Assembly (NCBI RefSeq): GCF_058153355.1
Contig: NZ_CM177019.1
Strand: one strand, 5' to 3'
DNA length: 64,000 nucleotides
Of the stretch, positions 34,201 to 40,200 are shown in pieces. A program made the position numbers. Every line of letters begins with the position of its first letter. The first letter of the stretch is position 1.

Positions 34201-37200
34201 AGGCGCTAAGCAACAGTGGATTGAGTTTGAGTATCACAACCTCGACAGGTTTGAGGAAATATTCATCTCGATGGACGTTGATGATGTTGGTCGTGAAGCT
34301 GCAAGGGAAATCGCAAGCCGACTCGGTGAACATCGTTGCCGTCTTGTTACTCTGCCGTACAAAGACATCAACGAATGCCTGATGAACGGTGTTACCGAGG
34401 ATGAAATCTGGCAGTACATCGGCACGGCATCCTACTTCGATCCTGAAGAACTCTACAGCGCGCGAGAGTTTTACCAGGACACTATCAACGCTTTCTACGG
34501 CAAGCAGCAGTATCTGTTTAATCCACCGTGGGAATCTCTGGCAGATAAATTCCAGTTCCGTGAGGCAGAGTTGACGCTGGTCAATGGTGTGAACGGTCAC
34601 GGAAAAACGGAGGTTGTCGGGCATATGGCACTTGAGGCAATGCGTCAGGGGGTGAAGACGTGCATCGCGTCACTTGAGCTGAAGCCAGGTATTCTCCTTA
34701 AGCGCCTTACCCGTCAGGCGACGTGCTGCAAGATGCCGCCAGTGCTGGAAATTGACTCTGCATTTAAATTTTATGACGAAAGACTTTGGGTGTTTGGCCT
34801 GACCGGAACGGCGAAAGCCGACAGGCTGATCGAAATATTCGACTACGCTCGCCGCCGATACGGCATCCAGTTATTCATCATCGACAGCCTGATGAAATGC
34901 GGCATAGGTGACGATGACTATAACGGGCAGAAAGCATTTGTTGACTCGATTTGTGACTTCAAAAACAAAACAAACTCCCACGTCATTCTCGTTACTCACT
35001 CGCGAAAAGGAGACAGCGAAGAAAAACCAACCGGGAAAATGGACGTAAAAGGCTCTGGAGCGATAACAGACCTGACAGACAACCTTTTTATCATCTGGCG
35101 TAACAAGGCTCGCGAGAGAGCGTTACAGAGAGTTCAGAGTGGTGAAAAGATGTCAGAGAAGGACGAACAGTTACTGGCGTCTCCTGCATCTGTTTTGATG
35201 CTTGAAAAACAACGTAACGGCGAAGGCTGGGAAGGTGGTGTCCCGTTGTTCCTTGACGAGCAATCGCACCAGTTCCTGCAACTTGAATCAGGATCGCCAT
35301 ATAGCTACATCGCCAATATGCCGAAATCGGAATATGACGAAGCGTGGCGACAGGAAAACATAACGGAGTATTAAATGACCATCTACATCACAGAGCTTAT
35401 AACAGGTCTGCTGGTAATCGCAGGCCTTTTAATTTGGGGGAGAGGGAAGTCATGAAAAAACTAACCTTTGAAATTCGATCTCCAGCACATCAGCAAAACG
35501 CTATTCACGCGGTACAGCAAATTCTTCCAGACCCAACCAAACCAATCGTAGTAACCATTCAGGAACGCAACCGCAGCTTAGACCAGAATCGAAAGCTTTG
35601 GGCTTGCCTTGGTGACGTCTCTCGTCAGGTTGAATGGCATGGTCGCTGGCTGGATGCAGAAAGCTGGAAGTGTGTGTTTACCGCAGCATTAAAGCAGCAG
35701 GACGTTGTTCCTAACCTTGCCGGGAATGGCTTTGTGGTAATAGGCCAGTCAACCAGCAGGATGCGTGTAAGCGAATTTGCGGAGTTATTAGAGCTTATAC
35801 AGGCATTCGGTACAGAGCGTGGCGTTAAGTGGTCAGACGAAGCGCGACTGGCTCTGGAGTGGAAAGCGCGATGGGGAGATCGGGCTGCATGACTATCAAA
35901 TCAAATACGCCAGCACACGACAAGGACTGCTGGCAAACGCCACTTTGGCTTTTTGATGCGCTGGATATTGAGTTTGGATTCTGGCTGGATTCGGCAGCGA
36001 GCGACAAAAATGCTCTGTGCGCTCACTGGCTAACTGAGGCCGACGACGCGCTCAATTCTGAGTGGGTAAGCTACGGTGCAATCTGGAATAATCCACCGTA
36101 CAGCAATATCAGGCCGTGGGTGGAAAAAGCCGCTGAGCAGTGCATACAACAGCGACAGACGGTAGTTATGCTTGTGCCAGAGGATATGTCAGTCGGATGG
36201 TTCAGCAAGGCTCTGGAGAGTGTTGACGAAGTTCGCATCATCACTGATGGACGGATTAATTTTATCGAACCATCGACAGGGCTGGAGAAAAAGGGAAACA
36301 GTAAAGGCTCAATGCTGCTGATTTGGCGACCGTTCATCAGTCCCCGGCGAATGTTTACTACCGTATCCAAAGCGGCATTGATGGCGATCGGGCAGGGCGT
36401 CAGGAGGGCGGCATGAGGCGACAGCGACGAAGTATTACCGACATAATCTGTGAAAACTGCAAATACCTTCCAACGAAACGCTCCAGAAATAAACGCAAGC
36501 CAATCCCAAAAGAATCTGACGTAAAAACCTTCAACTACACGGCTCACCTGTGGGATATCCGGTGGCTAAGACATCGTGCGAGGAAATGACTATTTATCCG
36601 GTGCGCCGCCAGAATGACGGCGCGGTGTGGTTAAACGAAGCGGATCTGGAGTTTTTTTCCAGTAGCGCGGGCGAATTTTTTTAGGGTGGCAAATGATGGG
36701 CCGCTGATACCTGATGCGAGATTACTTTCCATTCTGGTGATCGCGGTCGCTTTTGTTCCCATTCGCTCGGCAACTTCAGCCTGAGTTAAGCCAGCTTCTT
36801 TGCGTGCTGCCAGCATTTCATCAAGCAGTGCGAATTCGTCAGCGATAGCGTCGTATTCTGCTTTAAAAGCCGGGTCTTCCATCCATTTGGCTGCCATTTC
36901 GTCGTGTGTCATGGTGGGGAGAGTGCGTTTACCAGTCATGCTTAACCTCCTTCATTCTGGTTTCAGCTTTCTTGCGTTCGGCTGGCGGTGTTTTCTGCGT
37001 TTTCTTTACAAAACTATGCAGCATGATGATGCGTTTCCCTGTCAGAGTGCAGTAAAAAACACGCGCGATCCCATCGTTGCCTTTAATTCTGAGTTCGAAA
37101 AGCCCGTCACCAAAGGCGCTGGTGTGAGGTTCTCCGAGATTGCTGCCATATACCTTCATACGTTCAACGAGATGTTGGTATCGGGCACGCATACTCAATG

Positions 37201-40200
37201 GAAGCCGATCGACTTCCAGCCTTACATCTTCACTGTAGTATTCGATAGTGTAGTTCATAGGTATCAACATAACAAAATCGTTATATGCATTCAAGGCCTG
37301 TAGTTGACGACAACACATATCCGGGGCTATATTCCTCATACGCCAGCAAAATCTGGCGTCGGGATTGAGACCCCGGATGTTTACGGAGCGATATGAGACG
37401 CGCCCGCGTCTTTTTTCATATCGTTTGCACAGTCACATTCGCGATTTATGGTGGGCTGTGTGGGGGAGCCGAAAGGCTCGCCGGTTTCCGTACCCGGTAG
37501 TCTCAACCCTGCACAGCTCGCCACCAGATGATTGAGACCAGAAGGTGGCGATAATGACCAAATGTACGGAGTTATCGTTATGCTCACTCAAATTTCTGTC
37601 GACACTCTTCCTGCAATCACCCACAACCAGATCCCCGTTATTACAACTGAACTTCTGGCGCAGTTATACGGAACAAAAATCAAAAACATTTCTGATAATT
37701 TTCTGAACAACACGACGCGATTCGTGGTAGGAAAGCATTACTTTAAAATTGAAAAAAACGAATTACGCGAGTTTAAGAACAGACCCGAAACAATCGGGTT
37801 AGTTGGTAAAAATGCCCGCTCTCTTATCCTCTGGACAGAACGAGGCGCAGCCCGCCACGCAAAAATGCTCGAAACCGATCAGGCGTGGGACGTGTTCGAA
37901 AAACTGGAAGACTGCTATTTCAGCCAGACTTCGAAAAGCGCAGGTCATCACGAGAAGAAAACCAGCGAGCTTTCTGCAAAAGATGCAAACAGTCTGGTAT
38001 GGTTGTGGGATTATGCCAACCGCTCACAGGCATTATTCCGCGAACTGTATCCGGCATTAAAACAAATTCAATCGAACTATTCCGGCAGATGCCACGACTA
38101 CGGTCATGAGTTCTCGTATGTTATCGGAATGGCGAGAGACGTTTTAATCAATCACACACGAGATGTTGATATTAATGAGCCAGACGGACCAACGAATCTT
38201 TCTGCATGGGTAAGACTTAAGAACAAAGAATTACCTCCTTCACTGCATCACTACTGACAGATTGCCAACGCAACGACCCAGCTTCGGCTGGGTTTTTTAT
38301 TGCTGAATTTTCAATATGAGAGGACATGACAATGAACGAGCTGATAAATAGCAACGCCATCAAAATGACCAGCATTGAAATCGCTGAGTTGGTGGGAAGT
38401 CGTCACGACAAGGTGAAACAATCTATTGAACGACTGGCGGCTCGAGGTGTGATCCGAAATCCCCCAATGGTGGTTTTCGAAAAAATCAATAACTTAGGGT
38501 TACTTCGTGGCGTAGAGGCTTACGTTTTTGAGGGCGAACAAGGTAAGCGAGATAGCATTATTGTCGTCGCCCAATTGTCGCCGGAATTCACCGCTCGTCT
38601 TGTTGACCGTTGGCGAGAGCTTGAAGGGGCAACCGCAAAGATTCCACAAACCTTTTCTGAGGCATTGCGCCTTGCGGCTGACCTTGAAGACCAGAAGGCT
38701 GAATTGGAGAAACAGCTTGCTCTCGCGGCACCTAAAGTTGAGTTTGCCGATCGCGTTGGCGAGTCCAGCGGAATTTTGATTGGAAACTATGCAAAGGTTG
38801 TTGGTATTGGTCCAAACAAACTGTTTGCATGGATGCGCGATCACAAAATCCTTATTGCTTCAGGTTCCCGGCGCAATGTGCCAATGCAGGAATATATGGA
38901 TCGCGGCTATTTCACAGTGAAAGAAACAGCAGTCAACACAAATCACGGAATACAGATATCGTTCACCACAAAAATCACCGGGCGTGGCCAACAGTGGCTG
39001 ACCAGAAAGCTGCTCTATAACGGAATGCTGAAAGTAACAGGGGAGGCTGCTTAATGGCTAACTTACGCAAAGAAGCGCGCGGCAGAGAATGCCAGGTACG
39101 TATTTACGGCGTATGCAATGGCAATCCTGAAACTACAGTTCTGGCACATTACCGGATGGCTGGAATTTGCGGAACGGGAATGAAGCCTGACGACCTGATC
39201 GGCGCATGGGCTTGTAGCGCGTGTCACGATGAAATCGACCGACGCACCCATAACCTCGACAACAAAGACGCCAGACTTTACCACCTCGAAGGCGTGCTCA
39301 GGACGCAGGCGATACTGCTGAAGGAGGGGAAGATTAAGCCATGAACGAATATCAGTTTGTGCTTCCATACCCACCGTCGCTGAATACCTACTGGCGAAGA
39401 CGGGGAAGCCAATACTACATCAGCGATAAAGGCCAGAAATACCGAAAAGATGTACAGCAAATAATCCGCCAACTCAAGTTAGACATTTTCACCAAATCAC
39501 GACTCCGCATCAAAGTAATCGCAGACGTTCCAGACTCCCGCCGCCGCGACCTCGATAACATCCTGAAGGGTTTACTCGACTCCCTTATCTACGCCGGATT
39601 TGCGGAAGACGACGAGCAATTCGATGACATTCGCGTAATTCGTGGTGTGAAAGTACCAGGCGGAAGGCTTGTAATAAAAATCACCGAACTGGAGAACGTA
39701 TGAACAAAGCATTCGAACGATATATGCGCCAGCGTTATGGCAATCGCTACGATCTTACCCGCGATGCTTACGGCTTCTACTGTCGTGAGGTTGTGAAACG
39801 AATGTTTGAAGTGTGGTGTCATTGCAAAGGATAGAGGGGAAGACGATGAGACTCGAACGCGTAGCTAAATTTCATTCGCCAAAAAGCCCGATAATGAGCG
39901 ACTCACCACGGGCTACGGCTTCTGACTCTCTTTCCGGTACTGATGTGATGGCTGCTATGGGGATGGCGCAATCACAAGCCGGATTCGGAATGGCTGCATT
40001 CTGTGGTAAGCACGAACTCAGCCAGAACGACAAACAAAAGGCTATCAACTATCTGATGCAATTTGCACACAAGGTATCGGGGAAATACCGTGGTGTGGCA
40101 AAGCTCGAAGGAAATACTAAGGCAAAGGTACTGCAAGTGCTCGCAACATTCGCTTATGCGGATTATTGTCGTAGTGCCGCGACGCCGGGCGCAAGATGCA

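Follow-up and report, generated by a model that had tools for sequence, protein, structure and literature searches.

A probable type II toxin–antitoxin operon within a prophage nin region

The 64,000-nt stretch of contig NZ_CM177019.1 analyzed here (NCBI RefSeq assembly GCF_058153355.1; the whole stretch is termed the window) carries, inside a lambdoid prophage, two small adjacent genes that are co-oriented on the minus strand in the one-operon layout general to toxin–antitoxin (TA) systems of type II. The first gene (36929..37258; ATG at 37258, stop ending at 36929) encodes a 109-residue toxin of the gp49/HigB1 type with a predicted RelE fold, and the second (36631..36939; ATG at 36939, stop ending at 36631) encodes a 102-residue antitoxin. 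The two open reading frames (ORFs) overlap by 11 nt (36929..36939, ATGACTGGTAA). A first-pass annotation of this DNA had described a minus-strand pair of about 110 and 102 residues with an 11-nt overlap at 36631-37258, inside the plus-strand block from ninE to Q. Both ORFs lie exactly there, with NinE ending at 36589 and Q at 39813..40469. That the pair is real, far beyond chance, is confirmed by the Pfam E values, the homolog counts, the ratios of nonsynonymous to synonymous substitution rates (dN/dS) and the recurrence of the same pair in unrelated replicons. To judge from its sequence, the pair is apparently functional and intact. In molecular identity and mechanism class, we consider it highly probable that the locus is a complete type II TA operon composed of a gp49 (Tad/HigB1-like) toxin and an antitoxin with an XRE-type helix–turn–helix (HTH) domain, and we think it likely, though with less assurance, that the copy in the window is toxic.

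The longest possible toxin ORF starts at an ATG at 37339 and would encode 136 residues. We rejected this form, whose extra residues are absent from homologs, and chose the 109-residue start because it is favored by the homolog alignment, by an existing gene call and by the neighboring signals. The sequence M1-N-Y-T-I of the 109-residue form coincides with the first residue of 55 aligned homologs. The same 330-nt gene is called by the NCBI Prokaryotic Genome Annotation Pipeline (PGAP) in Escherichia coli FDAARGOS_943, which carries a copy 99.8% identical. The additional 27 codons of the longer form would span a plus-strand promoter-like site at 37304..37333 and reach the first base of a match to the small RNA isrK at 37340. 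Annotated starts differ among related records. In phage POCJ13 (L002 4335-4661), the 109-residue frame is intact but annotated as 87 residues. In STEC299 (L005 4335-4661), the frame is also intact but annotated as 76 residues, and an opposite-strand 'Rha family' gene is drawn over the 5′ part of the toxin.

The toxin is a Gp49-family protein with a predicted RelE-type fold

The toxin matches the Pfam family Gp49 (PF05973) over model positions 3–90 of 90 (E = 5.9e-26), and this domain is present in all 120 listed toxin homologs. Further matches are to PHROG 2523 (E = 3e-45; function listed as unknown) and, less strongly, to a PHROG with the annotation 'toxin'; the toxin's only other Pfam match, to MRP-L47, is insignificant. 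An AlphaFold2 model built from 55 homologs (predicted local distance difference test (pLDDT) 91.8; predicted template modeling score (pTM) 0.85) has the β-α-α-β4-α topology of RelE-type proteins. Compared with PDB structures using Foldseek, the model matches HigB, HigB1 and RelE with a probability of 1.00. Streptococcus pneumoniae HigB (6AF3/6AF4) has a template modeling (TM) score of 0.75, followed by Mycobacterium tuberculosis HigB1 in its free and ribosome-bound forms (7AWK/7NBU; TM 0.71–0.73) and by archaeal and Thermus RelE (TM 0.53–0.56). Vibrio cholerae HigB2 is a weak fold match (TM 0.53, E = 7e-3). The Gp49-like, RelE/ParE-fold toxin of the first-pass annotation is thus upheld by both family and fold.

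Alignment of the family profile with M. tuberculosis HigB1 equates E55, R57, R66, K85, Q88 and K89 of the window toxin with E66, R68, R77, K95, Q98 and K99, respectively, and E55, R57, R66, K85 and K89 are invariant among the 55 aligned homologs. In the HigB1 structure determined by cryogenic electron microscopy, the six corresponding residues lie within 4 Å of the A-site codon, and mutation of K95 abolishes activity (PMC9098466). Toxins of PF05973 are classed as ribosome-dependent mRNases encoded in toxin-first order (PMC11980606, Table 1). By homology, the window toxin would likewise cleave mRNA in a ribosome-dependent manner. HigB1 shares the Gp49-family RelE fold (7NBU/7AWK, up to TM 0.73), 25–26% identity and the pocket, but its K58 and N73 are not conserved in the window toxin, so codon preference may differ. 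The M. tuberculosis system also has a third component, a SecB-like chaperone, and its antitoxin bears a chaperone-addiction tail; the window pair has neither. For both partners, S. pneumoniae HigBA is the closest match in sequence and in structure (toxin E = 8e-9 using the family profile; antitoxin E = 1e-3). The catalytic residues R68 and K92 of its toxin correspond to R57 and K85, whereas its R73 lies opposite a gap in the alignment, the nearest arginine being R66. It differs from the window pair in its chromosomal Gram-positive locus and longer toxin N terminus, and identity is about 21%.

The PGAP name 'RelE/ParE family toxin' leaves room for a gyrase poison of the ParE type in place of an mRNase. 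ParE toxins share the superfamily fold, and Foldseek returned weak matches to ParE2 and ParE1 (TM 0.40–0.41). We nevertheless regard this identity as very improbable: the toxin has no Pfam ParE match (PF05016), the best-matching structures are the mRNases HigB, HigB1 and RelE, with those of ParE scoring much lower, the RNase pocket residues are conserved, and PF05973 is classed as a family of ribosome-dependent mRNases (PMC11980606).

The name HigBA-like, given by the first-pass annotation, holds in the broad sense of the literature, in which it covers the gp49 Tad/HigB1 subgroup. It does not hold in the strict sense, as the toxin has no Pfam match to the canonical HigB families of Rts1 (PF05015) or E. 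coli K-12 (PF09907). The NCBIfam model TIGR02683 (upstrm_HI1419 RelE/ParE toxin) was also rejected, at 21.2 bits against a cutoff of 62.85. Toxin-first order, put forward as a HigBA hallmark, is indeed typical of HigBA but is common to other TA families too. Placement of the pair among toxin-first RelE-superfamily/XRE-HTH systems, in the gp49 Tad/HigB1 subgroup, is supported by hidden Markov model (HMM), structural and comparative evidence.

Separately, the PADLOC candidate defense protein NsnC, whose C terminus (residues 233–283 of 293) is matched by toxin residues 49–99 (E = 7.6e-10), seems to carry a gp49/RelE-like domain.

The antitoxin and its predicted contact with the toxin

The second protein carries an HTH domain of the XRE type, as first proposed, in its C-terminal part, with residues 44–98 matching Pfam HTH_3 (E = 9.3e-11). 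It also matches PHROG 1373 (E = 2e-37), and its N-terminal segment is strongly conserved (MTHDEM..W..P.F.AEYD). HMM classification of the two proteins (PF05973 and HTH_3) is in keeping with a TA pair. The best PDB match of the antitoxin is the HigA chain of 6AF3 (6af3_B), and toxin and antitoxin match both chains of this one HigBA complex. In an AlphaFold2 model of a toxin–linker–antitoxin fusion (pTM 0.71), antitoxin residues ~11–31, which form the N-terminal helices, have pLDDT values >90; a fused chain of this kind returns no inter-chain error estimate or error map.

Membership in the tripartite toxin–antitoxin–chaperone (TAC) or HigBAC systems was rejected. There is no SecB-like chaperone gene and no chaperone-addiction tail, as the 102-residue antitoxin ends right after the HTH domain. 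On the 3′ side of the antitoxin gene lies a hairpin and then the convergent ninE, with no third gene.

Candidate regulatory signals and a proposed mechanism

Upstream of the toxin gene, we identified a putative σ70 promoter on the minus strand (37266..37294), with a −35 element TTGAAT (37294..37289), a 17-nt spacer and an extended −10 element TGtTATGTT (37274..37266). Its position is conserved among cassette variants. Only 7 nt separate the −10 element from the toxin ATG, and the toxin start lacks a Shine–Dalgarno (SD) sequence, a feature conserved in distant homologs; the toxin mRNA probably has little or no leader. The antitoxin, by contrast, has a strong SD sequence, AAGGAGG (36946..36952, minus strand), 6 nt before its ATG and within the toxin codons M-K-E-V-K. 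At the toxin–antitoxin junction of the distant homologs L006 and L007, GAAGGAGG or GAAGGAA is kept.

A 16-bp palindrome, ATAACGA-TT-TTGTTAT (37269..37284), covers part of the promoter spacer and the start of the −10 element and is a candidate operator to which the antitoxin or the TA complex would bind. Its core is invariant in five cassette variants with diverging surroundings. The exact palindrome occurs once in the window, where 0.11 matches would be expected at ≤2 mismatches, and distant plasmid and chromosomal homologs have TAACA-N4-TGTTA at the equivalent site upstream of their SD-less toxin starts. We infer the promoter, the leaderless start and the operator from this conservation. Just after the antitoxin stop, a G+C-rich stem–loop with a 9-bp stem and no U-tract (36603..36623, minus strand) has a folding energy of −18.5 kcal/mol (z = −3.7; none of 200 shuffles was as stable). 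The POCJ13 copy of the cassette also contains this hairpin, which may be a transcript-stabilizing or bidirectional stop element.

These signals suggest how the operon could work. Leftward transcription would start at the operon's own weak σ70 promoter, independent of the rightward, N-dependent nin transcript from pR. Toxin would be translated poorly from its SD-less, probably leaderless start and antitoxin well from its strong SD, which would yield an excess of antitoxin. By homology with the HigBA systems of S. pneumoniae and Acinetobacter baumannii, the N-terminal segment of the antitoxin would bind and mask the toxin, and a dimer of the C-terminal HTH domain, alone or within the TA complex, would bind the palindrome over the −10 element and repress the operon. 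Should antitoxin supply stop or the antitoxin be degraded, free toxin would enter the ribosomal A site, as M. tuberculosis HigB1 does, and cleave mRNA within the codon through the pocket formed by E55, R57, R66, K85, Q88 and K89, arresting translation and growth. The pay-off would most likely be selfish retention of the cassette or prophage, and possibly phage exclusion. The suggestion in the first-pass annotation that expression is independent of the lytic program is plausible, given the putative promoter of the operon, the conserved palindrome and the mobility of the cassette as a unit.

Conservation of the pair and the case against activity

Database searches returned 2873 homologs of the toxin and 667 of the antitoxin, many of them on common contigs. 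In toxin relatives of ~65% identity, the same HTH gene lies immediately downstream with an overlap of 11–14 nt; of two such distant pairs, one sits beside chromosomal ABC-transporter genes and the other on a Rep3/MobA/TraD plasmid. Between cassette variants, dN/dS is 0.05–0.17 for the toxin and 0.03–0.12 for the antitoxin, except for one pair at 0.36, and both genes are, on these sequence comparisons, under purifying selection. We also retrieved 38 IMG/VR viral contigs (L010–L047) by an operator-plus-start pattern. An ATG-initiated 109-residue toxin, a 102-residue antitoxin and the 11-nt overlap are intact in 35 of these 38 copies; of the remaining three, two begin with ATA and one is truncated. 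The overlap itself is kept in 37 of 38.

The family is widespread, and the cassette is rare. Family homologs occur on 3679 of 72,556 plasmid records, mostly conjugative. Of 5426 complete E. coli genomes, 30 carry the cassette, in every case on the chromosome, and toxin homologs were found in 45 of 50,697 phage records. Across 100,044 species-representative genomes, there was no match to the exact left junction or to a degenerate operator-plus-start pattern.

Several observations weigh against an active operon of this type. With 8 of 12 hexamer matches, the proposed promoter stays below the scan threshold and was not reported by the promoter scan. The terminator scan found no canonical intrinsic terminator after the antitoxin, where the hairpin lacks a U-tract. 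A search of the pair against NCBIfam gave sub-threshold matches only (TIGR02683). The fused structural model is only suggestive: it is compatible with a defined toxin–antitoxin interface but is no proof of one. M. tuberculosis HigB2 and HigB3, which belong to the gp49 family, are not toxic when expressed (PMC9098466). ATA replaces ATG at the toxin start in phage PhiR5_2 (L004 4659-4661) and in L027 and L032. Literature searches for the cassette in nin regions or Stx phages returned no study of it.

Some of these points would fit an inactive remnant, in which the toxin is catalytically dead or untranslated and only the HTH protein functions, as an orphan antitoxin or regulator. In the ATA-start variants, the rest of the 109-codon toxin frame and the antitoxin are intact, and database records call a 76-residue toxin from an internal methionine; these variants are possibly naturally silenced toxins, and their existence indicates that nature tolerates a silent toxin. 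The truncated copy, the absence of an SD sequence at the toxin start and the non-toxic HigB2 and HigB3 of the same family point the same way. The window copy, on the other hand, has an ATG, the full 109 residues and all conserved active-site residues, and its toxin gene is under purifying selection. The SD-less start is conserved in distant homologs and looks like designed low expression. We therefore consider a remnant improbable for the window copy.

The operon is part of a mobile cassette

The TA genes form part of a mobile cassette of ~720 bp (36603..37321, minus strand) that also holds the promoter/operator region and the 3′ hairpin. The window and Stx2a phage F451 (L003), which lacks the TA genes, are collinear up to 36586 and again from 37318. 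Between ninE and the isrK promoter, the 731 bp of the window (36587..37317) correspond to 23 bp in F451. In Shigella phage POCJ13, the block 36603..37321 recurs at 92% identity between unrelated flanking genes. Because the segment is absent from the collinear F451 and present elsewhere in POCJ13, we define it as a moron of ~720 bp; presence and absence in collinear phages and different flanking contexts are what characterize phage morons. From its sequence, the cassette would bring its own promoter and terminator.

An imperfect 10-bp direct repeat, TATCCGG(T/G)GC, flanks the cassette at a spacing of 723, with the left copy at 36595..36604 (TATCCGGTGC). In the alignment with F451, TGAC..TTTAT(T/C)CGG(G/T)GC is seen on both sides of the insert, and the left side retains a remnant of the old isrK −35 element and spacer (TGAC..TTTATCCGGTGC; 36587..36604). 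Because the left repeat matches the isrK promoter spacer of F451, we conclude that the insert landed inside the isrK promoter, a point absent from the first-pass annotation, and now supplies its −35 element, TTGACG. The present isrK promoter is, on this sequence comparison, a hybrid whose new −35 element comes from the cassette (37304..37327 side).

Recurrent position beside an isrK–C4–antirepressor module

Divergent from the TA operon, the plus strand carries a series of elements that we identify by sequence as a P1-immI-like control module (37327..38257). The isrK promoter-like site (37304..37333; TTGACG-18-TATATT, scan score 10 of 12) has its −35 element inside the cassette and its −10 element outside. 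It is followed by an isrK-type Hfq-binding small RNA (37340..37416; Rfam 70.6 bits, gathering threshold 50) and a C4-type antisense RNA (37444..37528; Rfam 75.9 bits, gathering threshold 45), with a sub-threshold match to the C4 target a1b1 at 37327..37379. An antirepressor gene lies at about 37580..38257 (PHROG anti-repressor Ant, E = 4.7e-77), and a second gene of the Ant/KilAC type follows at 38326..39054. In Salmonella, the isrK module of Gifsy-1 controls antirepressor and growth; IsrK controls translation of the antirepressor AnrP, and the paper mentions no toxin (PMC4825925).

By blastn, an isrK and/or C4 homolog lies 74–84 nt from the toxin start in 30 of the 38 IMG/VR contigs, over a range of toxin identities of 72–99%. 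By eye, most of the remaining contigs contain a more divergent isrK-like hairpin pair, and only POCJ13-type copies lack one. The other flank varies, with NinE as the neighbor in only 19 of 38. The cassette is thus linked more tightly to isrK/C4/ant than to ninE.

This arrangement raises the idea that the main target of the HTH protein, with or without the toxin, is the isrK–C4–antirepressor promoter, or that the protein is controlled by this promoter; the TA genes would then belong to the switch for prophage induction and not form a plain TA pair. The cassette sits in the isrK promoter and supplies its −35 element, the palindrome is 20 bp from that element, and at least 30 of 38 copies keep their distance from an isrK/C4-like element while the other flank changes. 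Gp49–HTH pairs of Tn3-family transposons are likewise divergent at the res/tnpR promoter region, for which a regulatory link has been proposed (PMC7157771). However, TA-less phages carry isrK-C4-ant and POCJ13 carries the cassette without isrK; as module and cassette each occur alone, neither part needs the other. The palindrome is present in a single copy that does not overlap the isrK promoter, distant plasmid and chromosomal homologs have no isrK, and linkage across a gap of ~80 bp may persist because recombination rarely separates the two. We judge such a principal role unlikely. Similarly doubtful is that the TA genes are wired into the immI-like antirepressor switch through back-to-back divergent promoters, with operator occupancy by the antitoxin or the TA complex, and its loss upon stress-induced antitoxin degradation, modulating transcription of isrK, C4 and ant. 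In this improbable reading, lytic rightward nin transcription would in turn be antisense to the TA operon, and TA state would be coupled to the decision between inducing the prophage or cross-inducing co-resident prophages and not doing so. That the adjacency in at least 30 of 38 viral contigs reflects selection beyond physical linkage also seems improbable.

The Tn3-family Gp49–HTH_37 pairs resemble the window pair in being toxin-first, borne by a mobile element and divergent from a regulatory promoter region (PMC7157771). The layouts are <A <T tnpR> in the transposons and <A <T isrK> C4> ant> in the window. The neighbors differ, namely a resolvase with its res site in the former and a small-RNA-controlled antirepressor in the latter, and a functional link is only conjectural in both.

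Possible roles in DNA retention and phage exclusion

One reading of the operon's benefit is addiction, in which post-segregational killing penalizes loss of the cassette and the surrounding prophage DNA. The nearest precedent in a temperate coliphage is gp49/gp48 of N15, a toxin-first pair whose gp49 is the namesake of Pfam Gp49. Its toxin is 46% identical to the window toxin over 91 residues and its HTH antitoxin 38% over 74 residues, and the proteins are of similar size (103 and 95 residues in N15; 109 and 102 in the window). The title of Dziewit et al. 2007, as given in the reference list of PMC5906591, names prophage N15 and SXT as encoding TA stabilizing systems homologous to tad-ata. Unlike the window toxin gene, N15 gp49 has a normal SD sequence and no TAACA-N4-TGTTA palindrome, and in N15 the toxin stop TAA is directly followed by the ATG of the next gene, with no 11-nt overlap. 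N15 is also a linear plasmid prophage, for which segregational stabilization makes sense, whereas the host of the window pair is an integrated lambdoid prophage.

A second precedent is HigBA2 of A. baumannii plasmid pAB120, which likewise encodes a Gp49-domain toxin first and an XRE-HTH antitoxin second. Its toxin acts as an RNase, HigA and the HigBA complex regulate their own operon, and the system can maintain an unstable plasmid (PMC5906591). It belongs to a different branch of the family and has a 118-residue toxin (357-bp gene) (PMC5906591). We considered the 65%-identical Acinetobacter plasmid homologs (~109 residues) as the characterized higBA and rejected this equation, given the 357-bp toxin gene of the published system. 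As these homologs differ from the studied higBA, no experimental data transfer at 65% identity.

Retention is further favored by a Tn3-family transposon identical to Tn4662, of a group listed with Gp49–HTH pairs, that stabilizes its host plasmid (PMC7157771). The abundance of the family on plasmids and the 35 intact copies among 38 cassettes also fit. On the other side, segregation seldom removes a prophage that is integrated in the chromosome, and deletion of higBA2 from its native plasmid pAB120 left retention unreduced (PMC5906591). The low frequency of the cassette in E. coli genomes and phage records argues against a strong general benefit. Stabilization of the cassette and prophage is thus a reasonable but tentative assignment, one that we would place somewhat short of an even chance.

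The alternative is anti-phage defense, in which shut-off of host transcription or decay of the antitoxin upon infection would free the mRNase and lead to abortive infection or superinfection exclusion. HigBAC of E. coli NT1F31 is the closest case. Like the window pair, it is a HigBA-type TA system on a lambdoid prophage. It is an mRNase TA system that is expressed in the lysogen, restricts lambda-vir and Bas25 and has a proven abortive anti-phage function (bioRxiv 10.1101/2024.02.24.581848). A gp49-family toxin also occurs inside a defensive TAC module (PMC11980606), the C-terminal half of the window toxin resembles the C terminus of NsnC noted above, and an accessory slot in a prophage is typical of defense morons. 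The comparison with HigBAC is incomplete, however, in that the NT1F31 system has three genes, lies downstream of cI in the rexAB slot and needs its SecB-like chaperone as the phage sensor, whereas the window pair has two genes in the nin region and no third gene. Other than NsnC, PADLOC gave only weak HTH matches of the antitoxin (E ≥ 1.4e-4; capH, HTH_VI and RmrA), and no system catalogued in PADLOC-DB v2 was matched full-length by both proteins. We regard defense as a possible but rather unlikely main function.

Annotation and implications

PGAP names related copies 'type II toxin-antitoxin system RelE/ParE family toxin' and 'helix-turn-helix domain-containing protein', and one phage record (PhiR5_2) labels the pair HigB/HigA. 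The pair is ordinary, of a well-known kind and already annotated automatically, with the exception of its recurrent position beside a switch of small RNAs and antirepressor. The present analysis tidies this annotation by assigning a 109-residue toxin start, where related records give 76 or 87 residues, and by placing the toxin in the gp49/HigB1 subgroup in place of the generic 'RelE/ParE'. It also defines the cassette boundaries and a likely operator, which makes the pair easy to clone. If toxic, the pair would add a characterized two-gene TA system of the gp49 type from a lambdoid prophage and offer a model for whether minimal modules of this kind, with no chaperone, exclude phages or only stabilize DNA. 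More interesting as a lead is that such pairs are repeatedly placed next to the isrK/C4/antirepressor module. A regulatory link between TA operon and antirepressor switch would be new if true, but the present evidence does not require one. Interest in the locus comes mostly from this juxtaposition and from the precise anatomy of the cassette.

Other features of the window

The prophage around the cassette has the gene order of lambdoid phages. Upstream lie, in order, a CI-like repressor, Cro-like and CII-like regulators, an O-like initiator and a primase/helicase. The plus-strand genes just before the pair encode a NinB-like protein, a phage N6-adenine methyltransferase and NinE; those after it comprise the two Ant genes, a 96-residue ORF, RusA and Q, in which Pfam Antiterm matches twice.

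Directly downstream of the CI-like repressor gene, in the position of the lambda rexAB slot, are three minus-strand ORFs (29147..30812), all in PHROGs of unknown function. The ORF at 30471..30812 matches PADLOC PDC-S43 (E = 1.9e-40), and those at 29913..30425 and 29147..29923 match PDC-M24A/B more weakly. The early-left region (26427..28970, plus strand) encodes a 523-residue transposase (PHROG transposase family, E = 2e-277) preceded by small ORFs at 26427..27035 and 27032..27379, a layout that we take to be like that of a three-gene element of the IS66 type.

Two plus-strand tRNA genes (40691..40843) lie between Q and the lysis genes; a related E. coli prophage has tRNA-Asn and tRNA-Thr. Genes for tRNAs in this position are seen in many Stx-type and lambdoid prophages. 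The host flank at positions 1..12000 of the window (gyrA, ubiG, yfaL, nrdA and nrdB) is 90–95% identical to most of the 5426 complete E. coli genomes and no more than 98% identical to a few, and by this measure it probably derives from a divergent Escherichia lineage, not from a typical E. coli.

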